Source: a virus
Reading direction: 5' to 3' (one strand)
Virus record (IMG/VR): IMGVR_UViG_3300047673_000554
Location: 1 to 64,000 of that record
DNA: 64,000 bases
Position numbers and translations under genes: made by a program. The notes beneath the pieces were generated by a model. The model saw only the letters and a program-made list of their open reading frames with translations. It did no database searches and was not told the origin of the DNA. This document shows, one piece after another, positions 1,953 through 43,882 of this stretch (positions are counted from its first letter, which is position 1; the number at the start of each line of letters is the position of its first letter).

Positions 1953-3653
1953 ATGCTCAAAGCCGATAAAATACTCGATGAAATAATATTTGTGCTCTCA
2001 ACTTTTGAAAGCTATATCAAGTATAGGTCCAAGCTTAGTCTAACCGACGCCAATATCTCTGCTGAGAGTTTGGTTGCAGATTTGTTGAACGCACTGCACG
2101 GCTGGGACTTGCGCAATACCAACGCCGCAACCAGTAATTATCCGTGTATTGACTTAATCGACGAAAAAAAGAGAATCGGCGTACAAGTAACCGCCACAAC
2201 CACGCTAAAAAAAATAAAGAGTACAATTGATTGCGTAGATTGCCATGAATTTCATTCTAAAATCGATAGATTGATCATCTTCATGCTCCTCTCTCGACAA
2301 TCGGACTATTCTGTTTCGCCTCCAAAGAATATAAAATTCAGCAAGACCGATGATATTATTGATTTTCACACAGTCATCAGATATGCAAAATATTCAGTCG
2401 GTAGTCTGGAGGCGCTCAGCAATATCAGGGCAGTTCTCAGGAATCATATCTCTAGTCGTGTCCCCTACTTCAATAACGAAGTCGAGAATTTGATTATGGT
2501 CGACATGGAGCAACGCTCTACAAGTCTTCCAAAATCCAGCACACAGCTGGAAATTTTCAACTTAATAAAAGGCAATCAGAAAGAGTTGGCGAGGGTTCGA
2601 CTGGATGATTGGGCAAAACAAATATATGCCAATGCATCAGCAGAAATATACAACTTGGCAGAGCTTTACACTCTGGTAAACCCTGTGGAAGCCGAGCTTC
2701 ATTACCAGAGGGCCATTGAGTTGAACCCTGGCAATGTCAAGCATGCAAATATTCATGGTCTGAACCTCATGAAAATTGGGAAGCTGGACGAAGCCGAAAA
2801 ACTATTCAAGGCCTGCCTGACCTCTGCTGATTTATCGCCTACAGAAAAAGAGCATATTTTGGGCAATTTGGGGATACTGTGCAAAAACCGAGCGCGCTGG
2901 CCCGAGGCAATTGATTATCTCACACAAGCCTTGGCGTTCCCTCGGCCTATGATTAATCTGGAAATGGTCAACCACCTAAATAATCTTGCAAGCTGTTACA
3001 ATAATATTGCTAATTACGAAGATTCAGAAATACTTCTCGATGAGGCCTATTCTTTGATTAACGTGCTTATCGAGGAAGAAGATGATCTTGATCGCAAAAG
3101 TATGTTGAAGCTCAAAAAAAGCAATATTCTGACCAATATATCAATCCGTCTCAGGCACAAAGCGAACAGGGATAACGATGAAACCCTACTTTTAAAAGCA
3201 ACCGCCGTAGTTAAGGAAGCGATTGATATTGCTGAGCTACTGAAAGAAAAAACAGAATTGACGCGTCACTACGGAAACCTGTCAAATATTTACAGCCAGA
3301 GGAAAAACTATGAAAGAGCAAGGAGCTTTCTGGAGAAATCGTTAGCTCTTGCCGTGGAAAACCAAGATCATCGCTCAGAGGTCGCGAACCTAGTCAATCT
3401 TGGTTTGCTGCAGATAAATGAACAACTGCTCCCCGACGCTGAACGCACTCTTCAGCATGGGCTCAAAAAAGAAAATAACCAGTACCCTCATTTTCGCGCC
3501 CATCTTTATGCAAACCTGGCTGTTGTGAATAAGTTAATGAAGAAGCATGTAGAATCAGCGCTTTTTTTCTCGGAAGCAGAACAACTTTATATTAAACACA
3601 ATATGCAGTCTCACCTGAAAGAGTTAAACAATAGATTTCTGGAATTGAGATGA
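1953..3653 (+). CDS. SMEK-domain (nuclease-like) + TPR-repeat protein
   Basis: N-term NISAE...NYPCIDLIDEKKRIGVQVTAT fits SMEK; repeated LGNLG/LNNLA/YGNLS/LVNLG TPR helices. Confidence 0.75.
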   Translation: MLKADKILDEIIFVLSTFESYIKYRSKLSLTDANISAESLVADLLNALHGWDLRNTNAATSNYPCIDLIDEKKRIGVQVTATTTLKKIKSTIDCVDCHEFHSKIDRLIIFMLLSRQSDYSVSPPKNIKFSKTDDIIDFHTVIRYAKYSVGSLEALSNIRAVLRNHISSRVPYFNNEVENLIMVDMEQRSTSLPKSSTQLEIFNLIKGNQKELARVRLDDWAKQIYANASAEIYNLAELYTLVNPVEAELHYQRAIELNPGNVKHANIHGLNLMKIGKLDEAEKLFKACLTSADLSPTEKEHILGNLGILCKNRARWPEAIDYLTQALAFPRPMINLEMVNHLNNLASCYNNIANYEDSEILLDEAYSLINVLIEEEDDLDRKSMLKLKKSNILTNISIRLRHKANRDNDETLLLKATAVVKEAIDIAELLKEKTELTRHYGNLSNIYSQRKNYERARSFLEKSLALAVENQDHRSEVANLVNLGLLQINEQLLPDAERTLQHGLKKENNQYPHFRAHLYANLAVVNKLMKKHVESALFFSEAEQLYIKHNMQSHLKELNNRFLELR

Positions 3654-30806: not shown

Positions 30807-33018
30807 CGAAGCAAGGCTCCTCGATCGGTTCCACCTTCAACGCCGAAGCGCCACCCCAACCTGCCGGCTTCTTGTAAGCCCAAGGACGCTGCCCACTTTT
30901 CGCCAGCGCCGGCATCCGGGTACGCCGCCAACCAAGCCGGTGCATGATCGCCCCGACACGCATCTGCTCGGGCTTACCCCAATGACCGAAGTCGAGCTTC
31001 AGCGCATTAGTCAGCACCTCACTGCCGGACGTGGTTTCACCGATCTGCGATTCTTCCAACCAGGTCAGGATTGGCCCTTCCCACTCATCCACAACAAAGC
31101 GCTCTTCCTGCGCCTCGGCAAAGGTCGGCGCCTCATCAGGCGTCACCCACCAGATGTCACCCGCCTCATAGCAAAACATCGCTTCAGCCCAGAGCTGGTC
31201 ACGGATCTCACGCAACTGCTCCAGATCGACCTTGGTACAAGCCACCGGCCAATATCGCCGGTTGCCAGTGGCGTCCTTGAGGTACTCGTCTTGGTTGGTC
31301 GTGCCCACGAACACACACTGGCGTGGCACGTCGTTCGTTCTGCGGCCATAGCTTTCGCGGTAGGTATCGGTCGACGCTGAGAAGAACTGTTTAGCCTTGG
31401 TGCTTTCCGCCTTGTTGAAGCTGTCCAGCTCCCCCAACTCGACGATCCATTTGCCACGGATCGCCTGAAAGCCGTCCTTGTCACCCAGGGCAAAAGGCGT
31501 ATCCATGAACCACTCGCCGCCGAGGATGCTCATCGCCGTCGACTTACCCGCGCCCTGCGCGCCTTCAAGAATCATCACCGAGTCAGCCTTGCAGCCGGGC
31601 CTCATAACCCGCCCCACCGCCGACAGCATCCAGCGCTTACCGACCTTGGCCGAGTAGTCGCTGGCCTGCACGCCCATGACATCGGTGAGCCAACTTTCCA
31701 ACCGAGGTACCCTGTCCCATTCGAGCTTTTGCAGGTACTCCCGCACTGGATGAAATGCATGGTCATGAGCAACAACGCTCACCGCCTCAATCACCTGCGT
31801 CGACTTGACCCTTAGGTTGTATTGCTGCGCGAGCCACTTCATCACCCGCACGTCATCGATGTCGGCCCAGTCGCCCGTACCACCGCCATAAGGGGCAGAA
31901 CGTAGCTTGACGATCTTCGAACTGAAGGCGCTGTAAGTGATCACGCCGGCCCAGCGTTCGTCGTTGCCAAGTATCAGCTCAACGTTCTGCATGTGGGCAA
32001 TCAGGGCGCCGCTTTCGGTGCGAGCCAATTGGTCTTTCCATCCACCCGCTGCCGGCGGCTTGACCACCGCCAACACCTGACGCCGGACTGCCTCCAAGCC
32101 TTCGGCGACGTGCAGATCATTGAAGTCCGTCCACTTGTCTTCCCGCTCACCGGAGAAGATCGGCGCGACGACCTGGCCACCGACGATCAATGCCGCGTTG
32201 TTGGCCTTCTCCTCCCCGGGGTTCCAGGCATCACCATTGGCGCGTTTCGTCTTCCAGTCATCATCCCGGCAAACAATCAGCGGGCAACCCGGAAAGCGCT
32301 CACGCATGGCCTTGCATACCACCAACAGGTTGCCCGCATCGAAGGCGATGGCCACCGTCAGCGAGGTCGCCATATGCAGACTCGCGCCCGTGGCGTAACC
32401 CTCACATACCAGCACCGGCTCCCCCGGTTCAGGGTGAGGCCCGATCAGGTGAAAAGCCCCCTCCTTCGACATCCCATAAGGCCAGTAAGACTTATCCCGA
32501 CCGGTATCTTCCTGCTTAGCCGGAAAGACCACCTGCAGGCCAACAATCTGGTCCCGCACGTTGCACATCGGCACCAAAAACGCGCCCGTGCGCGGCGCGT
32601 AACGAACACCAAAACCAACGATCTGTTTTCGATCCAGGTAGTCGCTACGCCCCTTCTCCGGCATGCGCTTGAACAGCCCTGCCGCACGGTTCGCCGCTCG
32701 ACGTGCAGCATTGGCCGCTATCTCGGCGGCGCGACGCTTGGCGTCCTCCTGCCGAGCGCGCATGACCTCACGTCCTTCAGGCGACATCCGCCCAGCCTTC
32801 ACTTTGATCTTCTGCGTCTCGCCCGAACGCCAGTCACCGAAGCTCCCGAAGATCAACGTCTCGCCTTTCTCGGTGCGATGTTCGTGGACGACATACCAAC
32901 CGTTCTTTTCTTTGCCCTTGTCCTGAGCGGTCTTGCAGCGGGTCAGCTTGCCAAAGATTAAGGGCTGGTCTGGCTCAAGGCCGTAGTCCGCGAATTGACC
33001 CAGTACCTCATCGAGCAT
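30799..33018 (-). CDS. TOPRIM primase-VapE/SF3-type helicase
   Basis: CEGYATG, DDD, TDFND; Walker A GAQGAGKST. Confidence 0.88.
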   Translation of the reverse strand: MLDEVLGQFADYGLEPDQPLIFGKLTRCKTAQDKGKEKNGWYVVHEHRTEKGETLIFGSFGDWRSGETQKIKVKAGRMSPEGREVMRARQEDAKRRAAEIAANAARRAANRAAGLFKRMPEKGRSDYLDRKQIVGFGVRYAPRTGAFLVPMCNVRDQIVGLQVVFPAKQEDTGRDKSYWPYGMSKEGAFHLIGPHPEPGEPVLVCEGYATGASLHMATSLTVAIAFDAGNLLVVCKAMRERFPGCPLIVCRDDDWKTKRANGDAWNPGEEKANNAALIVGGQVVAPIFSGEREDKWTDFNDLHVAEGLEAVRRQVLAVVKPPAAGGWKDQLARTESGALIAHMQNVELILGNDERWAGVITYSAFSSKIVKLRSAPYGGGTGDWADIDDVRVMKWLAQQYNLRVKSTQVIEAVSVVAHDHAFHPVREYLQKLEWDRVPRLESWLTDVMGVQASDYSAKVGKRWMLSAVGRVMRPGCKADSVMILEGAQGAGKSTAMSILGGEWFMDTPFALGDKDGFQAIRGKWIVELGELDSFNKAESTKAKQFFSASTDTYRESYGRRTNDVPRQCVFVGTTNQDEYLKDATGNRRYWPVACTKVDLEQLREIRDQLWAEAMFCYEAGDIWWVTPDEAPTFAEAQEERFVVDEWEGPILTWLEESQIGETTSGSEVLTNALKLDFGHWGKPEQMRVGAIMHRLGWRRTRMPALAKSGQRPWAYKKPAGWGGASALKVEPIEEPCFGD

Positions 33019-33235
33019 GACGGGCCTCCCGCGATTCTGCGATCGATTGGCAAGGCACGCACTGCGAACAACCGGGCTGCGCTAAGCGACGGTCTTCCGG
33101 TATCGGGTCATCACACCCCTCACAGAATAGAAATGAATGCGCCGCCGAAGCGGGCTTGGCGGCGTTACGTTCAGCGAGTGCCTGATCAAGACGCTCCTGC
33201 ACCAGGTCGTTGGCAAAGTCAGCGATGTCAGCCAC
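33008..33235 (-). CDS. TraR/DksA C4 zinc-finger protein
   Basis: GTG start, ADIADFA, CEGC...IPEDRR...CVPC. Confidence 0.85.
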   Translation of the reverse strand: MADIADFANDLVQERLDQALAERNAAKPASAAHSFLFCEGCDDPIPEDRRLAQPGCSQCVPCQSIAESREARHAR

Positions 33236-33746
33236 GGTCGACACCCCGCGTGGTCTGATTGACGTAGGTAGCGCGGTTGAACATCCCCAACAGCCCTTGA
33301 ATACCGCGAAACACTTGCAGCCGGATTTCGGCCAATTCGTGGTCACTCACCACCCCATCACCAATGCTCTTGGCCCAAGTGTCGGCCAGATCAGCAACCT
33401 GCCGGAAATAAGCAGCAATGCCGGTGGTCAAGGTTTCAGGCATGTCGTTGGTGTACGCCTCGGCCAACTCCTGCCAAGTCGTATCCCCGACCAGCGCATG
33501 CACTGCATCGAGAATGCGGCGGTCTTTGGTCAACTCCAGGATCTCGCCGAACTCCTGAATGTTCACGGTATGGCTAGGGTGGGTTGGAGACAGCTTGTGC
33601 TGCAGCGTGGTGGCGTTTCTGCCGGTGGTGGCGGCAATTGCAGCGGCGCCGCCGGGATAGTCTCGGGCAGCATGGTAAAGCGCTAAATCGAGCGGCAGGA
33701 TTTCCCGCTGCGCCCGTTCTACAGAACTCAGAGCGATTCGGCTCAT
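33228..33746 (-). CDS. Phage CII-family regulator
   Basis: YPGGAAAIA, LQHKLSP, DGVVSDHE. Confidence 0.75.
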   Translation of the reverse strand: MSRIALSSVERAQREILPLDLALYHAARDYPGGAAAIAATTGRNATTLQHKLSPTHPSHTVNIQEFGEILELTKDRRILDAVHALVGDTTWQELAEAYTNDMPETLTTGIAAYFRQVADLADTWAKSIGDGVVSDHELAEIRLQVFRGIQGLLGMFNRATYVNQTTRGVDRG

Positions 33747-33804
33747 GGCATTAATCCTTACAGGTTGCCAGTGCCTCGCGACATGCAGTGGTGATACATT
33801 TGCC

Positions 33805-34072
33805 GCGTGGCTTGAAAGGGCCCAAACGCCGGCTAGATCTTCAGGATCGAACCGGCACCGTGCCGAGGCGAACAATCCGTTGTTCACCCCTGGCGCAACA
33901 GCTGCCCAATCTGTGGTGGAAAAGGCAGCAACACCAAGGCATCCGTGCCTTGGAAAGCGCGATAAAGAGAGGTGGTTAGCATGTGGTGTGCCCGCCTATC
34001 TTTACCGCGACCCGACAGCGCTGTGGTGGTGCGTGGCGGGAGGAACTGGGCGACCTTAGGGTCGCCTTTTTT
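33805..34072 (+). ncRNA. Putative multi-hairpin antisense RNA with UGUGGUG loops
   Basis: Extended -10 TGaTACATT (33792-33800); three hairpins with TGTGGTG loops; G-U pairs favour the + strand; + strand terminator. Confidence 0.55.
34049..34072 (+). terminator. Intrinsic terminator
   Basis: GGCGACC-TTAG-GGTCGCC-TTTTTT. Confidence 0.75.
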
Positions 34073-34076
34073 CTTG

Positions 34077-34337
34077 CTACGCAGCGGTTTTTTGAGGAGC
34101 CGATGCGTTCAAAAGCCAAGCAGCTTGGAAAGCATTGCCTTTCTGTTCCGCAGCAATTGCCAATAGCTCAGCGTATTTGGTTTCACCTGTGAAATCCGTT
34201 CGCGGCAGACATGCCGCCTGACGCCATTTGTTCAACGCCTGATAGCTTCTATTGCATATCTTCGCGGCGGCCCCGATGCCGCCTACGGCTTCAAAAGCGA
34301 ACGCAATGGCGCTCGGAAATTTTGCGGGGTCCAACAT
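34077..34337 (-). CDS. cro: Cro-like repressor
   Basis: Small HTH divergent from cI. Confidence 0.75.
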   Translation of the reverse strand: MLDPAKFPSAIAFAFEAVGGIGAAAKICNRSYQALNKWRQAACLPRTDFTGETKYAELLAIAAEQKGNAFQAAWLLNASAPQKTAA

Positions 34338-34351
34338 GACAACCTCCATTT

Positions 34352-34424
34352 ATCAACTCGTGGTTGATGTTATAGATCAACTGACTATTGCGCAACCTTT
34401 GTGAGACTCTCAACTCATGGTTGA
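34352..34424. promoter_or_regulatory. OR-like operators TCAAC-N5-GTTGA
   Basis: ATCAACTCGTGGTTGAT (34352-68), degenerate middle copy, TCAACTCATGGTTGA (34410-24) overlapping the cI ATG. Confidence 0.7.
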
Positions 34425-35148
34425 TAAAAATGCACTCCGCGCAGCTTTTAGCGAGCGCCTCCATGAAGCACTCGACGACGCCGGCGTACGTACCCGGGGT
34501 CGTGGCGTGGACATCCATCGTCAGTTGAAAAGCTTGGGGGTAGATAAAACCACACAGGCCATCAGCAAGTGGCTGAATGGTGAAGCCATAGCTGAGGCTG
34601 ACAGCATGGTTGCGCTTTGTTCTTGGCTAAAGGTGCGGCGCGAGTGGCTGGAGTATGGCGTTTTGCCAAAAGAGCGGACAAGTGAGAGTAATGTTCGCCA
34701 TATGGGGCTCGGCGATGGGAGTAATGTTAGTGAAATCAACCATCGCTTTGGCAAGGTTCCCTTGATTTCCTGGGTACAAGCTGGAGCATGGTGCGAGGCT
34801 TTTTCAAACATTGAGATCTACGATGCAGACTCATGGCTTTCTTGCCCTGTTCCGATCAGCAACAATGGATTTGCATTGAGAGTGCAAGGCGATTCGATGA
34901 CGAATCCAGGGCCTGGTCGCAGTTATCCAACCGGTTGCATAATCTTTGTAGACCCTGAAGCAGAGACACGAACTGGTGACCGCGTAATAGCTAGAGTTCC
35001 CCGTACCAACGAGGCTACATTTAAAGTTCTAGTAGAGGATGCCGGTCGACAATTTCTGAAGCCGATCAATCCGCAATACCCAATCATTGATATTACGGAA
35101 GAGACGCACATCTGTGGCAAAGTAGTTGGATCATTCATCCCTGAATAA
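34417..35148 (+). CDS. cI: CI repressor (HTH + S24 autopeptidase)
   Basis: VPLISWVQAG, VQGDSM, ATFK. Confidence 0.92.
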   Translation: MVDKNALRAAFSERLHEALDDAGVRTRGRGVDIHRQLKSLGVDKTTQAISKWLNGEAIAEADSMVALCSWLKVRREWLEYGVLPKERTSESNVRHMGLGDGSNVSEINHRFGKVPLISWVQAGAWCEAFSNIEIYDADSWLSCPVPISNNGFALRVQGDSMTNPGPGRSYPTGCIIFVDPEAETRTGDRVIARVPRTNEATFKVLVEDAGRQFLKPINPQYPIIDITEETHICGKVVGSFIPE

Positions 35149-35158
35149 ATCCATTTCG

Positions 35159-37651
35159 CTACCGGTTTTTCACCCTAAATGGAACCGTGTACATATCACA
35201 AAAATCAGAAGCGCGAAGTTTAGCGGCGATCAATTTTTGTCTTATCGCAACCGCATCACCCAACTCATTACTGCTTGCTACTGAATTAATGAATTTCCGA
35301 ACAGACTCTCTAAACTCTCCAAGCTTTTCCCGTGTCATGACACGAATATTTTGGTTAGGTGAAGCAGCGTATTCGAACAACGAATATGGGTGCACCAAAA
35401 TTGGAGTATAAGCACTCGAGTGATCATAACGCTCCTCAAACCACTCACAAGAGCCATTAAGCTGATTACAGTAATACTTGGTTATAGTTTCAACCACAGC
35501 CTCATTTTTACATTCAATCACAAAATAATTTAACTCTCCAACTTTCCACAGTACATCAGGCCCCTTTTGGTACTCTTGCTCCGGGCGTTGACTACGGAAG
35601 CCTAAATACCTAGCTACATCCTTCATCCTTGCTTCAAACAATTCGGAACTATCAAGCTTAAAGTCCAGCCCCTCCAACACCCCATTTATTTCCACTACAA
35701 GCTTATTTGGATCTTGAAACGTTTTAGTCAAAAACTCACTACATGCTTTAGCCTGATCCAGCACCGCCCCAGAAATTTTATGATATTGAATACCTTCGAT
35801 AGGCTTCAATAGCCTTCTATTGTCCCCAACAGCAGACATTTGAATTTTTTGAGCAGAGGCTTGATCTAGCAAATTAGTGTATTCCGCATAATGCTGCTTA
35901 ACCAAACCTCTAAACTTCAAGTCAGCAACTGCATTAACTAACTCCTTTAACTCTTGAGCCGCAGCAGCAAAATTGCTATTGCACGCATAATCGTATGCTT
36001 TTCTGAGTGACAAGATATTACTATCAATGGAGTTTTCTTGAGTGTAAGCCAAAGTTGCCAACACCCCCTTACTTGCTGCAACCCACTCCTCTTTGCGCGC
36101 CCAGCAATAATTTAACGTATCTGTAATCTCTGATAATTTCTTTCCTTTGATCTGTTCAGAAACCTGCTCGGACAGGGCTAACTGGGCTCTAGTACCCGGT
36201 GAAAACTTGCTCATAGCACCTTGCGCATAAAGCTTGCTGGTCAGATCTCTACCCATTAAAAAAACAACACAGTAATCATCATTTGATCTAACGCCACGCC
36301 CCATACCCTGTTCAACGCGTTGAATTACCTGATTTACGTCCCGATCACTTCCCAATAAAACCGTTTGATTGACCCTGTCGATTTTGCTGCGAACATCTGG
36401 AAACCCATCTATCACTAACAGCCTGCAGGCATCACCGGGCAGGTCAATCCCATCATACTTATTAACAAGTACGACCAAACCAACTTTACCGGCCTTTAGC
36501 TTATCCACCCCCTCGTAAAGATTATTTGCAAATAGAACTAAATTAGCGCTATCCCTCCAGTAATCAGCACGCGCCTTCGAAGGTACAATAACTACCACAT
36601 TCATATATTCAGCGATGAACTTGCAATATTTCTTTATATGATCATCAGCTAGTTCAGAATTAATTACTTGAGGCAGGAGTATCATACGATCCCCAACATC
36701 ACCCGCTGAATCAGGAACGATAGGACGCTGTAGAAATTTATCATCAACCCCGAAATGACTAGCCAAAATTGAATCATCAACTAACGTGGCGGTCATGAAC
36801 AACTTACGATCGGCATCAATGATACTAGGAATCATATGAATCGGAATTGCATGCGGGGTGATCTCGATACTCTTCGCCCCAACGACACAATGACTCAATT
36901 TTGGAAACTCTTTCACAAGAGGCCACACAAACTGTAAATAATCTTCTTTTTTATGCGCAATTAGAATTTTACAAACTTCTGATATTTTACTCTGCCAAAC
37001 CCAATAGGGAACTTGCATCAACGCAGCTGAACTACCACTTTCGACTTCAAGAGCTTTTGATTCGCATTGGTTATGGAGAGATTCCTTAAATAAATCATAC
37101 AGCGCGGTATATACCGCGGTGCCCTGCGGAATCTCGATTGTAAACTGCTCTTCAACGTAGCCAATACATGCATGAGCATCATCTACGACAAGACTAGCAA
37201 TTTTTATTTTTACACCTTCGTCACCAACGCCGAACGCTGATCGGCCATTGACCAATTTGAAAATATTCGCCACGAGAATTGCTTTACCGGAAATAAAGCG
37301 ATGTGAATGTACATCGTCAGTAACTTCAACACCCAGTTCTTCAGCAGCATCCATCACTTGTTTTACAAGATAAGGATCAGGGCAAATATATACAGCGGGA
37401 AACTTTCCCTCATTTATACAACTTTTTAACGCAAGTAAACCAACGACAGTTTTTCCGCTACCAGTGTTTAACTTTAGAACTAAACTATTTTCATTTCGAC
37501 GCTCGAACCACTTCGACCAAACCTGAGATTGGACATCTCGAGGATATTGAAACTTTTGAGCATTTTTTTTGGGTAAAGCATTAAAAATTTCCCTGGGCTG
37601 CAGGACGGTATCAACCGTTACACCTGTTCCAATACGTGTGAAGTCAATCAT
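35159..37651 (-). CDS. DinG/XPD-like SF2 helicase + C-terminal PD-(D/E)xK nuclease (Hna-like defence protein)
   Basis: NTGSGKT, DDAH, TAT, DGIDLPGDACR, QGMGRGVR; PDVLW...IECK; AT-rich. Confidence 0.75.
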   Translation of the reverse strand: MIDFTRIGTGVTVDTVLQPREIFNALPKKNAQKFQYPRDVQSQVWSKWFERRNENSLVLKLNTGSGKTVVGLLALKSCINEGKFPAVYICPDPYLVKQVMDAAEELGVEVTDDVHSHRFISGKAILVANIFKLVNGRSAFGVGDEGVKIKIASLVVDDAHACIGYVEEQFTIEIPQGTAVYTALYDLFKESLHNQCESKALEVESGSSAALMQVPYWVWQSKISEVCKILIAHKKEDYLQFVWPLVKEFPKLSHCVVGAKSIEITPHAIPIHMIPSIIDADRKLFMTATLVDDSILASHFGVDDKFLQRPIVPDSAGDVGDRMILLPQVINSELADDHIKKYCKFIAEYMNVVVIVPSKARADYWRDSANLVLFANNLYEGVDKLKAGKVGLVVLVNKYDGIDLPGDACRLLVIDGFPDVRSKIDRVNQTVLLGSDRDVNQVIQRVEQGMGRGVRSNDDYCVVFLMGRDLTSKLYAQGAMSKFSPGTRAQLALSEQVSEQIKGKKLSEITDTLNYCWARKEEWVAASKGVLATLAYTQENSIDSNILSLRKAYDYACNSNFAAAAQELKELVNAVADLKFRGLVKQHYAEYTNLLDQASAQKIQMSAVGDNRRLLKPIEGIQYHKISGAVLDQAKACSEFLTKTFQDPNKLVVEINGVLEGLDFKLDSSELFEARMKDVARYLGFRSQRPEQEYQKGPDVLWKVGELNYFVIECKNEAVVETITKYYCNQLNGSCEWFEERYDHSSAYTPILVHPYSLFEYAASPNQNIRVMTREKLGEFRESVRKFINSVASSNELGDAVAIRQKLIAAKLRASDFCDMYTVPFRVKNR

Positions 37652-37753
37652 GGTCAGTTCGTCCCTTTCTGATGCAGTGGGATCGCACCGTAAACCTTAG
37701 GCGCTGACGATGTCCATACGATATCAGTCGATACACCCTCAACAACTCGCATA

Positions 37754-37796
37754 TCAACCACTGGTTGTTGACAATTAGCAACTTACGGTTGATATT
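37754..37796 (+). promoter_or_regulatory. PL-like promoter with OL operators
   Basis: TTGACA-N17-GATATT overlapped by TCAACCACTGGTTGT and GCAACTTACGGTTGA. Confidence 0.7.
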
Positions 37797-37831
37797 TGCT
37801 TCACTCTTCCACCACAGAGCGAGGCAACACC

Positions 37832-38008
37832 ATGCACACCACAGCCACCCTGCACGTCCATCCGGCTGCTGCTGATCCATTCCGCATCTTCGAAATCCGC
37901 CGCCTGGCCCGCGAATGCGGCTGCACGTTTGTCACTACCAAACCAAAGCAGAAAGCCCGCATCTCACCCACTCCGTTCGATCCGAATGGCGGAGGGTGTG
38001 CAGCATGA
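37832..38008 (+). CDS. Small early phage protein
   Basis: GAGG RBS, first gene after PL. Confidence 0.6.
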   Translation: MHTTATLHVHPAAADPFRIFEIRRLARECGCTFVTTKPKQKARISPTPFDPNGGGCAA

Positions 38009-38595
38009 GCAAGTACAAGCTAGACAACCGCACCCTGCAATTGCTCAACGCTCAGGTCAACCTGACCGAGACCTTCAACCACACGCTAAGGTCGACGCCT
38101 AAGCGCGAAGCTCTGTCGTTCCGCCTGAAAGTTGAACGCAACACATCCGACACCCTTTTCACCGTTGAACTGGGCAGCGAGCGCCACACGCTGACCTTGA
38201 AGAACGAAAAAAAGATGCACCTCAAGCTGGCCGACTTTATCGAAGAGATCGTCAATGGCCCCTTCGACCCCAACAATGCTGCCGACCTGTTGAACCTCCC
38301 CCACGCCAGCCGTCAATACGCTCGCTTCGACACTGAGCACAAGCAGCGGGTATTCGAGCTGGTGCGCACGGGTGGTGTGGTGAGCCTCGACATGGGTTTT
38401 GATCTGCCCCTCCACGTCGCATTGCATCGCACACAAGCCCGCTCGGGTGTCACCAGCATCATGAGCATCGGCGAGAAAAGGCCACGCACCAAATGCTTCA
38501 CCGTGTACGGAAGCGATGTCGAGATCTACGAGAAAGTGTCCGAGTCCATCAACCACCTGGCTGCGGCAGCAACACCCGCCGCACACGCTGCGTGA
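38005..38595 (+). CDS. Hypothetical early phage protein
   Basis: GGAGG RBS, ATGA overlap. Confidence 0.7.
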   Translation: MSKYKLDNRTLQLLNAQVNLTETFNHTLRSTPKREALSFRLKVERNTSDTLFTVELGSERHTLTLKNEKKMHLKLADFIEEIVNGPFDPNNAADLLNLPHASRQYARFDTEHKQRVFELVRTGGVVSLDMGFDLPLHVALHRTQARSGVTSIMSIGEKRPRTKCFTVYGSDVEIYEKVSESINHLAAAATPAAHAA

Positions 38596-38604
38596 GGGGG
38601 TGTC

Positions 38605-38889
38605 ATGGAACGCACTCTCGCCCAAGCCGCGAAGCACCTCGGCATCACTCGGCCCAAGCTGATCGAACTTATGCGGGCTAAAGGTCTGCTCAATAACCGG
38701 AACCTGCCCACCTACCCGACCCGCGATCGCGAATACCTGCGGATCAAGGACAGCAACTGGTACCACGAGACCGCCGGCATGCAGTACAGCCAGTCAACCC
38801 GCGTCAGACAACCCGGCATCCGCTGGCTGGCCGATCAACTGGGGCTGGATCTACCCGCCATCCCGGCAAACCACCGTGACGTGGCCTAG
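38605..38889 (+). CDS. Antirepressor KilAC-like protein
   Basis: LAQAAKHLGI...MRAKGLL...TRVRQPGIRWL. Confidence 0.7.
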   Translation: MERTLAQAAKHLGITRPKLIELMRAKGLLNNRNLPTYPTRDREYLRIKDSNWYHETAGMQYSQSTRVRQPGIRWLADQLGLDLPAIPANHRDVA

Positions 38890-39055
38890 GGAATACGCTC
38901 GCCAGATCGTCGCCATGAGCACACGCGAAGAGCGCAATGCCGCGCTCCTCGAAGTGCCTGAACATCTGCGGGAGCTGACCAAAACACACTGCCTGAATGC
39001 CTGGAACCACCCGGCAAGAACACAACGCAAGGAGGCTCAGCAAGCCGATGCATAA
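38876..39055 (+). CDS. Small hypothetical phage protein (not in ORF track)
   Basis: GTG start, 59 aa, overlaps both neighbours. Confidence 0.55.
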   Translation: MTWPREYARQIVAMSTREERNAALLEVPEHLRELTKTHCLNAWNHPARTQRKEAQQADA

Positions 39056-39365
39056 CACCAGCCAAACACCGCTACGACTGCGACCCGCACCCGAGTCAGC
39101 CACCGTGGAACTGCTTTACCGCACCTTCGGTGACGTGCTGATCCCGCTGGAAAAAGTCCGCGAGCAGTACTTCCGCAACCTCAACGAGCAATCGTTCGTG
39201 GCCGAGATCAATAGCGGCCGGATCCAGCTCCCCATCACCACGCTGGACACCAGCCGCAAGGCCCCGAAATACGCACACATCCGCCATGTCGCTTCGCTGA
39301 TCGACATCCGCGCCTACAAGGCGGATGAAGAGATGCTGCGACCGCAGGACGATTCAACCGAGTAA
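39048..39365 (+). CDS. PrtN-family DNA-binding protein
   Basis: LIPLEKVREQYF...SRKAPKYAHIRHVASLID. Confidence 0.7.
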   Translation: MHNTSQTPLRLRPAPESATVELLYRTFGDVLIPLEKVREQYFRNLNEQSFVAEINSGRIQLPITTLDTSRKAPKYAHIRHVASLIDIRAYKADEEMLRPQDDSTE

Positions 39366-39422
39366 GACACCCGACCCAAAGGCTGCCACCACCGGCCTAC
39401 GACATCACCAGGAGCACACCAC

Positions 39423-39842
39423 ATGACTGCAATTCAAATCTGCGCATTGATCGGCCTCATCGTCGGCGCTGCCCTTCTCTACTGGACCGGCTACCGAGGC
39501 GGTCAAATCGATGGTCGCATCGAGGGAATCGACGAAGGCAAAGCCATCCAACAATCCGACAACTCGCAAGCCCTCCGAAACCTGGAGCACTCACTACTCC
39601 AAGCACGCGCCGAGGAGTTGCAACTGTACGGCCACTACGAGCGTGCACTGGCGGCCTCAAAACTGGGAGAGCAGGAGCGTCAAACCCTACTTGCCATCGC
39701 CGAAAAACTCAGGATCGCCGCGGAGACATTCAGCGCATTCCGCACCGGCAAAAAACTCGAACGCGATTCACTAGCCCTGCGCGAACAAGCGCTCTCCATG
39801 GCAGCCCTGCTAGAGCCAGAAACGCAGGAGGATGCGGCATGA
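39423..39842 (+). CDS. Membrane-anchored coiled-coil phage protein
   Basis: N-terminal TM; AGGAG RBS. Confidence 0.7.
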   Translation: MTAIQICALIGLIVGAALLYWTGYRGGQIDGRIEGIDEGKAIQQSDNSQALRNLEHSLLQARAEELQLYGHYERALAASKLGEQERQTLLAIAEKLRIAAETFSAFRTGKKLERDSLALREQALSMAALLEPETQEDAA

Positions 39843-40060
39843 ATCGCTCGCTTCCAATGTTACGCCTGACACCACAGGCGGCCGGCGCCTTGCAACAGCA
39901 ATGCACCAAAGCCACCACCGAGTTGCGGGAACTGACGCGCTTTCGCAAAGAGTTCGACCGGCAACTGGTCGCACTGATCGGCAACGACGCCCTGCGCAAA
40001 CTGAACAAAGATACCAAGAACGCTCTGCTACTGGCGGACTTGGTCAAGGAGGCAGCATGA
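39839..40060 (+). CDS. Hypothetical phage protein
   Basis: ATGA coupling on both sides. Confidence 0.65.
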   Translation: MNRSLPMLRLTPQAAGALQQQCTKATTELRELTRFRKEFDRQLVALIGNDALRKLNKDTKNALLLADLVKEAA

Positions 40061-40812
40061 GCCAAATTTCTCACCATCATCGCAACACGGCTCACGCTTC
40101 ATCAGCACTTGATGGACCAACTCGCTATCGAACACCGGAGCAAAGCGGCATCAAAATGGACCAGCACACCACCCAAACATCGACCGCTTTGCTCTGCAAC
40201 GCGAATGGGGTCGACACACCAGAAACAAACAGCCTCTGCTGCGCAGCAGCAGGCATTATTGCCCCTCTCAGCGCCACTGCCGAGGCACTTATACCCCACG
40301 AAAAGCTGCGCGAGGCAGCCGCACCTGATGCAACGCTAATCGCTCAAAATCGGCTGCCCGCGCAGCTTGTCGAGGGGTATAAGCTACTTTTACATACTCA
40401 TGACGCTTCGAAGCAGGCTGCCGTCAAGGCCGCCAAAATTGATGAGCGCGCAGAGTTCGAGAAAGAGTTTCCAGCTCCTGAGGGGCTTCAGTATTGCAAA
40501 CAACGTGGGACGTACATTACGTCGCCTGGTGTGAGCGTATCTGCCACATTTTCGCGCGAGCATTACGCGTACAGAGCAGGCTATTCAGCGTGGATGCGTC
40601 GAGCTTGGAAGCACGGCGCTTTGGTCAACCAGCAACCTCCGGACCGAGAATGCAGTAATAATCCGTTGCCTATAGGCATTGATAGCGCGCCCGCCGAGAA
40701 GGCTCCCCTGCCGAATAAGACCGCCGAACCTCCTATGTTCAGCGACGTTTCAACATGGGCACAGCCAGCAGCTATCGCCTCAAGTGAATCTCCGCGGGAA
40801 AGAGAGCAATGA
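40057..40812 (+). CDS. Hypothetical phage protein (start 40057 or 40156)
   Basis: In operon; mosaic, low-complexity sequence. Confidence 0.55.
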   Translation: MSQISHHHRNTAHASSALDGPTRYRTPEQSGIKMDQHTTQTSTALLCNANGVDTPETNSLCCAAAGIIAPLSATAEALIPHEKLREAAAPDATLIAQNRLPAQLVEGYKLLLHTHDASKQAAVKAAKIDERAEFEKEFPAPEGLQYCKQRGTYITSPGVSVSATFSREHYAYRAGYSAWMRRAWKHGALVNQQPPDRECSNNPLPIGIDSAPAEKAPLPNKTAEPPMFSDVSTWAQPAAIASSESPREREQ

Positions 40813-41078
40813 ACACCTTGTTTTTATTGATGGCTCAATACAACGGTCAAGCCGTAATTCCCCTCGATCGTGTATGCGCTGACTATATGCACCTGACGGT
40901 CGAGAAGTTCAAACGCAAACGGTTGGACGGAGAGATTGATGTTCCGATAGTGCGCTTGGGGGCTGACAGCCAAAAGGCAGCACTTGGTATCCACCTAAAA
41001 GATCTGGCCGATTATATAGACCGCCAGCGGGAAAAAGCAGCCAAGGAGCAGAACCAACTGATGGGGAGAGCTGCTTAA
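40809..41078 (+). CDS. PrtN-family protein, possible excisionase
   Basis: MNTLFLLMAQY...SQKAALGIHLKDLADYID; last early gene, facing int. Confidence 0.7.
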   Translation: MNTLFLLMAQYNGQAVIPLDRVCADYMHLTVEKFKRKRLDGEIDVPIVRLGADSQKAALGIHLKDLADYIDRQREKAAKEQNQLMGRAA

Positions 41079-43780: not shown

Positions 43781-43882
43781 TTCCAGTTGCTACATTGCTG
43801 AAGTCGATTGCTACATTGTAGCAACCGACTTCGAAAAACAAGGAAAAATGGGTAAAAACCGCTGTATAAAAGACCAGTATCA

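Follow-up and report, generated by a model that had tools for sequence, protein, structure and literature searches.

The described phage immunity RNAs include c4 of P1 and P7, CI of P4 and CA of N15 (the C4 type, Rfam RF01695), sar of P22 and OOP of lambda. C4-type RNAs are ~77 nt long, and P1 c4 acts on downstream genes via icd polarity. P22 sar is encoded in cis, opposite the arc-ant junction. Lambda OOP overlaps the 3′ end of cII, and we know of no trans targets of OOP in the operon of the early-left promoter, PL. Other phage small RNAs (sRNAs) pair in trans: lambda PreS acts on host mRNAs (dnaN and alaS) and VP882 VpdS acts on host and phage mRNAs (bioRxiv 10.1101/2024.10.31.621285). Here we analyse 64,000 nt of viral DNA (positions 1 to 64,000 of IMG/VR virus record IMGVR_UViG_3300047673_000554), hereafter the window, which belongs to the 79.6-kb provirus record of a fluorescens-lineage Pseudomonas prophage. 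The gap between its cro-like gene and cII very likely encodes a conserved sRNA of ~267 nt, predicted from comparative sequence data, with loops complementary to start regions in the PL operon. This predicted RNA, convergent to the early-right promoter, PR, appears to add RNA-based control to the lysis-lysogeny switch.

A predicted small RNA gene in the cro-cII spacer

The spacer between the cro-like gene and cII comprises 329 bp (33748-34076). Relatives of the locus were gathered from IMG/VR, from GTDB genomes and by tblastn with CII. A three-motif pattern scan of viral contigs yielded many chance matches, and a similarity filter was applied. The spacer element was 80-97% identical in 187 related loci, drawn from IMG/VR and from 79 Pseudomonas genome loci, which together represent 168 unique variants. 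Strains carrying it include P. koreensis DSM 16610, P. migulae CFML 95-321 and P. chlororaphis PCL1601.

The predicted transcript occupies 33806-34072 on the + strand, with its start placed from the −10 element and its end from the terminator. Among the relatives, the predicted length has a median of 267 nt and a range of 248-272. The RNA fills the spacer exactly, leaving the cII ribosome-binding site (RBS) and the cro coding sequence untouched, and is antisense to the cro-cII intercistronic mRNA. It is preceded by an extended −10 element of the form TGnTACATT (here TGATACATT, 33792-33800, + strand); a good −35 element is absent. The intrinsic terminator (34048-34072, + strand) consists of an 8-bp GC-rich stem (34048-34067) followed by six T residues and ends 4 nt from the cro stop codon.

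Between these signals, consensus folds and pair counts define a series of + strand hairpins. Three 5′ hairpins span 33802-33895 (33802-33833, 33836-33848 and 33861-33895). Within them, G.U pairs at 33812/33819 and 33813/33818 are possible on the + strand only, and compensatory changes are seen in the hairpins at 33836-48 and 33861-95. Hairpin 1 (33901-33929) has a 6-bp stem and a 17-nt loop containing UCUGUGGUGGAA. It is followed by a small hairpin of 7 bp with a UCCG loop (33935-33952), which shows double changes at all 7 pairs and is identical in the cultured Pseudomonas aeruginosa phage Haddon (PQ571161). Hairpin 2 (33958-34009; fold z-score −4.3) carries at its tip the sequence GCAUGUGGUGUGC (33979-33991), which we call the anti-start-site element, and hairpin 3 (34011-34040) contains GCUGUGGUGGUGC. 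The motif TGTGGTG occurs once in each of hairpins 1 to 3, at 33912-18, 33982-88 and 34022-28. Single-sequence folds place each copy in a GUGGU pentaloop closed by a U.G pair, such that UGUGGUG is partly paired. These data confirm the arrangement of three TGTGGTG hairpins between an extended −10 and a + strand terminator that had been proposed in a sequence-only reading of the window, and all coordinates and strings quoted in that reading are present in the sequence.

A coding role for the spacer was considered for its + strand open reading frames (ORFs) and for a 46-aa ORF of phage Haddon; indels of 1-2 nt and the compensatory stem changes led us to reject it. The Haddon ORF, annotated as a hypothetical protein at 3295-3435 on the strand opposite the RNA element that it overlaps, is probably a mis-call.

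Structure and strand of the predicted RNA

Covariation was measured on a 100-sequence alignment using a consensus + strand structure of 70 pairs. In this structure, 97.5% of the cells were paired, and 25 of the 70 pairs were changed on both sides. None of 500 column shuffles reached any of the five pairing measures, and the pairing fell by half when the 3′ partners were slid by 1-3 columns. The fold z-score of the spacer against shuffled sequences was −5.3 for the + strand and −4.6 for the − strand.

Several features distinguish the two strands. TGnTACATT is retained in 169 of 170 unique spacer variants, with n being A in 141, G in 16 and T in 13. Variation at n alone is the pattern expected of an extended −10 element and therefore points to the + strand. 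Diverged lineages carry TGCTAGAGT, TGCTACAGT, TGGTACAGT or TGTTAGAGT at this position. The T6 run of the terminator is present in 140 of the 170 variants, while the search pattern found no terminator in 28; no T run was found on the reverse strand. One pair of the terminator stem is G.U in 62, A-U in 35 and G-C in 3 of the 100 aligned sequences, and would thus be a C.A mismatch on the opposite strand in the majority of them. A Halomonas lineage has its own U-run terminator, which likewise lies on this strand and contains a U.G pair.

The folding energies are consistent with this orientation. The consensus fold was calculated at −78.0 kcal/mol for the + strand versus −62.8 for the − strand, and the + strand was the more stable in 81 of the 100 sequences; the corresponding values for phage Haddon were −149 and −134. 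In the stem of hairpin 3, three pairs are G.U in 30%, 41% and 100% of sequences, respectively, which restricts the stem to the + strand. G.U pairs abound in hairpin 3, the first 5′ hairpin and the terminator alike, and the minus strand cannot form these structures. Counts of G.U versus A.C pairs on each strand's own fold did not discriminate, as such folds are optimised for the strand from which they are predicted, and were replaced by helix-by-helix counts.

On the minus strand, a separate hairpin (33745-33775) brackets the cII RBS: UGGCA pairs with UGCCA just before the cII AUG, placing the RBS in the loop. This hairpin is invariant in 100 relatives and occurs in a sequence-changed version in Haddon and in the Halomonas phage described below. 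It may control cII translation. An invariant block, GTTGCCAGTGCC, lies over the −35 region of the sRNA promoter and was considered as a possible CII site; no further copies were found above chance. The block is better explained by the UGGCA/UGCCA hairpin at the cII RBS.

Family and distribution

According to cmscan against Rfam 15 at E values up to 10, the region 33000-41000 contains no match to C4 (RF01695) and no family for the spacer element. Five related loci searched at the Rfam gathering score yielded a tRNA only, and a blastn comparison with 50,697 phage records returned no match for the spacer. We built a covariance model from hairpin 1, the small hairpin and hairpin 2. It matched the cro-cII spacer of phage Haddon on the expected strand (E 9.5e-12) and, marginally, Halomonas phage vB_HmeY_H4907 (E 0.023), in which the layout is the same (cI-cro-spacer-cII-dksA). 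Matches were also found in 27 of 151 genomes sampled evenly from the genus Pseudomonas. Literature searches produced no description of this RNA, which is very likely undescribed.

Some of the genomes (G005, G027, G048, G131 and G146) hold two or three copies of the RNA element, which indicates polylysogeny with related immunity regions. Contigs of one sequencing run contained fragments of related prophages, either DNA or RNA, and were informative on neither strand nor transcript ends.

Complementary sites in the PL operon

The promoter at 37768-37796 (+ strand) is PL. It is of the sigma-70 type (TTGACA, 17-bp spacer, GATATT) and is accompanied by two flanking CAAC-N5-GTTG operators (37755-37796 including the promoter) that are otherwise found only at cI/cro and at one other place in the window. 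The first gene of the operon, orf58 (37832-38008, + strand; PHROG 35204), encodes 58 aa. It is followed by a 196-aa ORF, genes for a KilAC-domain protein and a PrtN/excisionase-like protein, a 139-aa ORF (39423-39842, + strand; PHROG 28176) and more genes. The conserved sites described here lie at the 58-aa and 139-aa ORFs, both without assigned function; orf58 has no Pfam family, and every homologue is annotated as hypothetical.

Each of the two ORFs is associated with a bipartite target, in which a CCACCAC site complementary to loop 1 is followed, at a spacing of 25-28 nt, by a start region that the hairpin 2 tip complements. Target 1a (37804-37819, + strand), at the 5′ end of the PL mRNA, presents UCCACCAC between CUCU and AGAG. 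The loop of hairpin 1 is complementary to TTCCACCACAGA within it (37807-18; 12/12), and the complementarity extends over 9-18 bp in the 125 relatives from which both elements could be extracted. The PL 5′ end also gave the best duplex energy with loop 1 in the whole 64,000 nt (rank 1 of 25,428 windows). With a PL start near 37803, the 5′ hairpin of target 1a has four pairs only. Target 1b (AUGCACACCACAGC, 37832-37845, + strand) is the start of orf58, in which the tip of hairpin 2 is complementary to GCACACCACA (37834-43; 10/10).

Upstream of gene 39423, target 2a (39381-39397, + strand) is a hairpin with CCACCAC between GGCUG and CGGCC or CAGCC. Target 2b (39410-39425, + strand), AGGAG-CACACCAC-AUG, comprises the Shine-Dalgarno sequence (SD), the spacer and the AUG of that gene; the tip of hairpin 2 is complementary to GCACACCACATG (39414-25; 12/12). 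In every case, the hairpin 2 tip contains CAU or the complement of SD-proximal bases.

Conservation of the segment 37787-37866, which comprises the −10 element, leader and first codons, extends to ~150 loci; in every one of them it is found on the PL strand, 1.0-4.6 kb from the RNA. Targets 2a and 2b are nearly invariant in the 74 loci that cover the region; by contrast, their 12-17 nt linker and flanks vary. The sequence-only reading had listed six sites on the PL transcript. Four of these are the conserved sites above. The remaining two did not hold up: ACACCACAG (39869-39877, + strand) lies inside a coding sequence, is variable among relatives and is not part of the system, and GCACACCAC (40164-40172, + strand) lies inside the frame at 39832-40812, away from any supported start codon, and is partly conserved and doubtful.

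Enrichment of the motifs was counted across 81 species-level loci. The density of CACACCAC was 2.06 per 10 kb on the PL sense strand versus 0.26-0.35 in three controls, a ~7-fold difference, and the motif adjoined an SD and ATG at 103 of 143 PL-sense sites versus none of 60 in the controls. Similarly, a CACCAC hairpin had the second motif within 55 nt in 118 of 224 cases, versus none of 222 in the controls. Other CCACCAC hairpins on the PL strand fall in stretches coding for GVTTI or PITTLD and are explained by the protein sequence. At orf58, the four-fold degenerate wobble base of codon 3, which lies inside the target, has an entropy of 0.24 versus 1.0-1.5 at comparable sites; judged by these values, the synonymous site within the target is constrained. 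TGTGGTG itself occurs 20 times in the window versus 8.4 expected, a count reached by none of 100 shuffles.

Co-variation of loops and targets

The loop and target sequences change together among lineages. The main group pairs UCUGUGGUGGAA of the sRNA with UUCCACCACAGA of the target over 12 bp, or 15 bp where the loop is GGAAGAG, and subgroup A (16 loci) pairs CUCUGUGGUAAG with UUUACCACAGAG. Further pairs come from the loci L292 to L295. In L292, GCUCUGUGGUGGAGAG matches CUCUCCACCACAGAGC over 16 bp, and CGUGGUGUGCUCC matches GGAGCACACCAUG over 13 bp, with one G.U pair, from the SD through the AUG. The L293 sequence UGGUUUGCUCC matches two targets, GGAGCAAACCA and AUGCAAACCA; the L293 duplexes are of 15 bp and 11 bp, and the latter covers GGAG of the SD. 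In L294, L295 and subgroup B, the pair is UGGUUUGC with GCAAACCA. The Halomonas phage has perfect complements of 11 nt and 12 nt, with CCGUGGUGGGG directed at CCCCACCACGG and GCAUUGGUUUGC at GCAAACCAAUGC, the second across the first codons.

In phage Haddon, GCAUGGUGGU corresponds to ACCACCAUGC at the second target, where the hairpin GGCCG...CGGCC shows a compensatory stem change. Neither the UGUGGUGUGC loop nor, at the start of orf58, GCACACCACA is present in Haddon.

The switch from UGGUGUGC/GCACACCA to UGGUUUGC/GCAAACCA is found in subgroup B, in L293-L295 and in Halomonas. Subgroup B is nested in the main clade, indicating that this G/U-C/A switch occurred more than once. GGUGGAA pairs with UUCCACC, and GGUAAG with UUUACC in another lineage. 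Certain target substitutions are accommodated through G.U pairs only: CGC for CAC in subgroup A, CUACCAC, GCAAACCG, and CACGG opposite CUG. The joint conservation of loops and targets on which the sequence-only reading depended is thus seen as start-region complementarity that is conserved and co-varies in several lineages.

Proposed action of the predicted RNA

Overall, we consider that the RNA probably acts in trans as an antisense repressor of PL-operon translation and, in cis, as an antisense RNA to the PR transcript. A stand-alone sRNA gene on the + strand of the spacer, opposite cro and cII, would be expressed and would present its GUGGUGG loops (hairpin 1, with hairpin 3 as a spare) to CCACCAC at the 5′ end of the PL mRNA and in the hairpin before gene 39423. 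The tip of hairpin 2 (GCAUGUGGUGUGC) would cover codons 1-4 of orf58 and the SD-AUG region of gene 39423. Translation initiation of both genes would be blocked in vivo, possibly with polarity or decay downstream that would include the antirepressor-like (KilAC) and PrtN/excisionase-like genes.

Because the sRNA gene is oriented against PR and its product complements the RNA between cro and cII, expression of cII and the replication genes would be expected to fall in cis. In turn, transcriptional interference by PR would lower sRNA synthesis. The RNA would be made in the lysogen if its promoter is constitutive, or during establishment if CII is needed. The suggestion in the sequence-only reading that the RNA forms a second immunity layer requires that it be made in the lysogen. 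Part of that interpretation is supported: the + strand RNA gene is supported by the extended −10, the terminator, stem covariation across related Pseudomonas loci (25 double-change pairs; 0/500 shuffles) and the strand folding bias, the complementarity at PL start regions co-varies, and the motif belongs to no family in Rfam. Two of its target sites, which lie inside coding sequence, fall away.

Several observations weigh against repression by pairing in trans. Within this genome, six exact complementary 12-mers were found in the window versus ~2-3 expected, which is near chance; a single exact 12-mer match alone is not significant, and the duplex energies of loops 2 and 3 are unremarkable. 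These within-genome statistics are modest, and the case therefore rests on the comparative data. The independent co-variation events are few, ~4-6, related sequences sharing them by descent. As to the strand, the lower stem of hairpin 2 and the hairpin at 33871-84 hold A.C cells that are G.U pairs on the other strand, and no clear U-run terminator was found in phage Haddon. The spacer is also transcribed from PR, so the minus-strand RNA has the sequence of the PL targets, and every co-variation is equally an identity in the sense direction. Finally, the pairing at target 1a could release an SD from sequestration, with activation of translation as the outcome.

The sense identity leads to an alternative that we regard as unlikely, in which the CCACCAC hairpins act in the PL-leader and cro-cII spacer transcripts themselves, as nutL and nutR do, and the + strand RNA is irrelevant or secondary. 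A phage or host factor, perhaps orf58 as an N-like protein, would control antitermination or translation. As with lambda nutL/nutR and HK022 putL/putR, an element of the same sequence and sense follows PL closely and recurs between cro and cII, and the motifs change jointly in all lineages, as a pair of sites read by a single factor would. The gene at the head of the PL operon is small and without assigned function, some helices suit the minus strand, and CACUCUU at PL resembles boxA, whose consensus is CGCUCUU. However, neither the conserved extended −10 and strand-specific U-run terminator nor the better + strand fold is explained by sites acting in the sense transcripts, and the minus strand is unable to fold hairpin 3 or the terminator. 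Unlike boxB copies, the shared 12-16 nt occur in dissimilar hairpins (a 7-8-nt loop on a 4-5-bp stem at PL versus a 17-nt loop on a 6-bp stem in the spacer), and the three copies in the spacer are arranged in another order. At two unrelated genes, the second motif covers the SD, spacer and AUG or first codons, a placement that fits occlusion by pairing better than a factor site, and the element has its own promoter and terminator on the opposite strand. The HK022 put element, present in both early transcripts, is a two-hairpin structure of ~70 nt, whereas the PL leader here, at ~30 nt, is too short for one. Moreover, the target changes that preserve pairing through G.U break the sense identity.

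An RNA that acts in cis only is likewise improbable, whether as an OOP-like antisense RNA or as the terminated 5′ part of a CII-activated transcript of the PRE/pE type directed toward cI. The sRNA promoter lies just upstream of and opposite the cII start and points at cro and cI, the position occupied by lambda PRE and 186 pE (PMC8538670). It has no usable −35 element, as is often so of activator-dependent promoters, and the RNA is by construction fully complementary to the PR mRNA. The matches in the PL operon would then require another cause. A role in cis needs neither conserved loop motifs nor matching sites 1-4.6 kb away, yet the distant matches are conserved, sit at start regions and co-vary. 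A cI establishment transcript is also hard to reconcile with the strong, invariant terminator and with the missing SD upstream of cI. The invariant −35-region block has no further copies, and the hairpin at the cII start accounts for it better.

It is quite improbable that the same RNA, pairing in the same way, activates its targets, with loop 1 opening an SD-sequestering stem (CCUC/GAGG) in the 5′ hairpin of the PL mRNA. The sRNA DsrA activates rpoS by opening such a sequestering stem, and in most relatives the target 1a region can form CCUCACUCU/AGAGCGAGG, with the SD GAGG in the 3′ arm. The predicted PL start near 37803, however, leaves the CCUC of the 5′ arm untranscribed, and hairpin 2 pairs directly with the codons next to the AUG and, in the case of target 2, with the SD-AUG itself, which is a classical repressing geometry. 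That the repeats are DNA sites for the P4-alpha-like primase-helicase (iterons), CII or Cro is very improbable: a short motif is indeed repeated in an intergenic region beside replication genes, but the stems keep pairing through compensatory and G.U changes that DNA sites would not need, the motif flanks co-vary with distant partners as reverse complements, and the partner sites overlap SD and AUG signals.

Comparison with known phage RNAs

Read as an antisense repressor of PL-operon translation, the predicted RNA is functionally analogous to P1/P7 c4, P4 CI and N15 CA. All would be structured phage RNAs with loops directed at a pair of short sites, one of which lies at an RBS, in an early or antirepressor operon, and the resulting layer of regulation would add to that of a protein repressor. 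The loops and targets here occur in the same 5′-to-3′ order, which indicates independent loop contacts, as in C4, rather than one long duplex. The differences from C4 are nonetheless considerable. There is no sequence or structure match to the Rfam model, and the predicted RNA has ~267 nt with 7-8 hairpins and its own promoter and terminator, whereas C4 RNAs are much shorter and are processed from the transcript that they control. It is encoded in the territory of the other early operon, with targets 3.7 kb away on a different transcript. The targets themselves are start regions with an upstream CCACCAC hairpin, and no induced terminator is visible.

Like lambda OOP, the predicted sRNA is a short, terminated RNA against the PR operon near cII, is fully complementary to its transcript and would be expected to lower cII. 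Unlike OOP, it lies upstream of cII, overlaps neither the cII coding sequence nor the cII RBS, is three to four times longer and has conserved loops that match distant sites. P22 sar provides a precedent for a phage antisense RNA that blocks an RBS in an antirepressor operon; sar is cis-acting, whereas the anti-start-site element here is encoded at a distance from the two unrelated genes that it matches. With its terminator, U6 tail and seeds of 8-16 nt at SD/AUG, the predicted RNA also resembles Hfq-type trans-acting sRNAs. Among phage sRNAs, PreS and VpdS are similarly terminator-ended and pair in trans (bioRxiv 10.1101/2024.10.31.621285). The conserved targets here, by contrast, are the phage's own early-left genes, and the sRNA gene lies inside the immunity region; lambda PreS is encoded elsewhere.

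Gene layout and other features of the region

The spacer is flanked by cII (33228-33746, − strand), which belongs to the Phage_CP76 family (Pfam E 6.9e-21; PHROG 101), and by the cro-like gene (34077-34349, − strand), assigned from its position and a weak match to PHROG 35. An S24 CI-type repressor is encoded at 34417-35148 (+ strand), and a DksA-like gene and the gene for the P4-alpha-like primase-helicase lie beyond cII.

Between cI and PL, the window contains an 830-aa helicase-family gene (PHROG 16128) and an upstream 78-aa ORF (35159-37880). The helicase gene is missing from most relatives, and in many of them PL lies only 1.0-1.2 kb from the end of the RNA, which identifies the helicase region as an inserted cargo module at the position of lambda rex. 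The called start of the 78-aa ORF (37644-37880, − strand) is doubtful because it overlaps the conserved PL promoter and leader. In the PL operon, the most likely start of the 226-aa ORF at 37915-38595 is ATG 38005, which is preceded by GGAGGG and shares the sequence ATGA with the stop codon of orf58. The 196-aa product of this start aligns with PHROG 15582 over its full length.

A near-perfect inverted repeat of ~96 nt (40288-40383) lies inside the 39832-40812 reading frame. Its weak match to plant microRNA precursors, on both strands at E ~0.07-0.12, is surely spurious as a family assignment. Further along, TGCTACATT occurs twice, 21 bp apart, at 43788-43817 near the integrase and attachment (att) region; these may be arm-type repeats.

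Implications for lambdoid Pseudomonas phages

A broader reading, which we put forward tentatively and regard as possible but rather doubtful, is that the RNA is a widespread arm of the lysis-lysogeny switch of Pseudomonas and Halomonas lambdoid prophages. The head-on sRNA gene would be silenced by PR through collision and pairing, and the sRNA would shut PL start sites by a kissing loop and start-site occlusion. The two early operons would thereby be coupled by RNA in addition to CI and Cro.

If the proposed action is correct, a regulatory RNA family that has gone unannotated would be present inside the immunity region in about one-sixth of the sampled Pseudomonas genomes and in at least one cultured phage, Haddon. 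The phage immunity RNAs (c4, CI, CA, sar and OOP) would then extend to lambdoid Pseudomonas phages, with a different design: an RNA from a dedicated gene that runs toward PR, directed in trans at a pair of bipartite targets in the other early operon. The loop-target pairs are defined to the nucleotide, and the natural compensatory variants indicate which mutations to make, so the system is directly testable. The genomes with multiple copies would be useful in establishing whether loop variants define RNA-level immunity groups. Such an RNA would be relevant to prophage stability, induction and superinfection immunity in plant-associated and clinical Pseudomonas.

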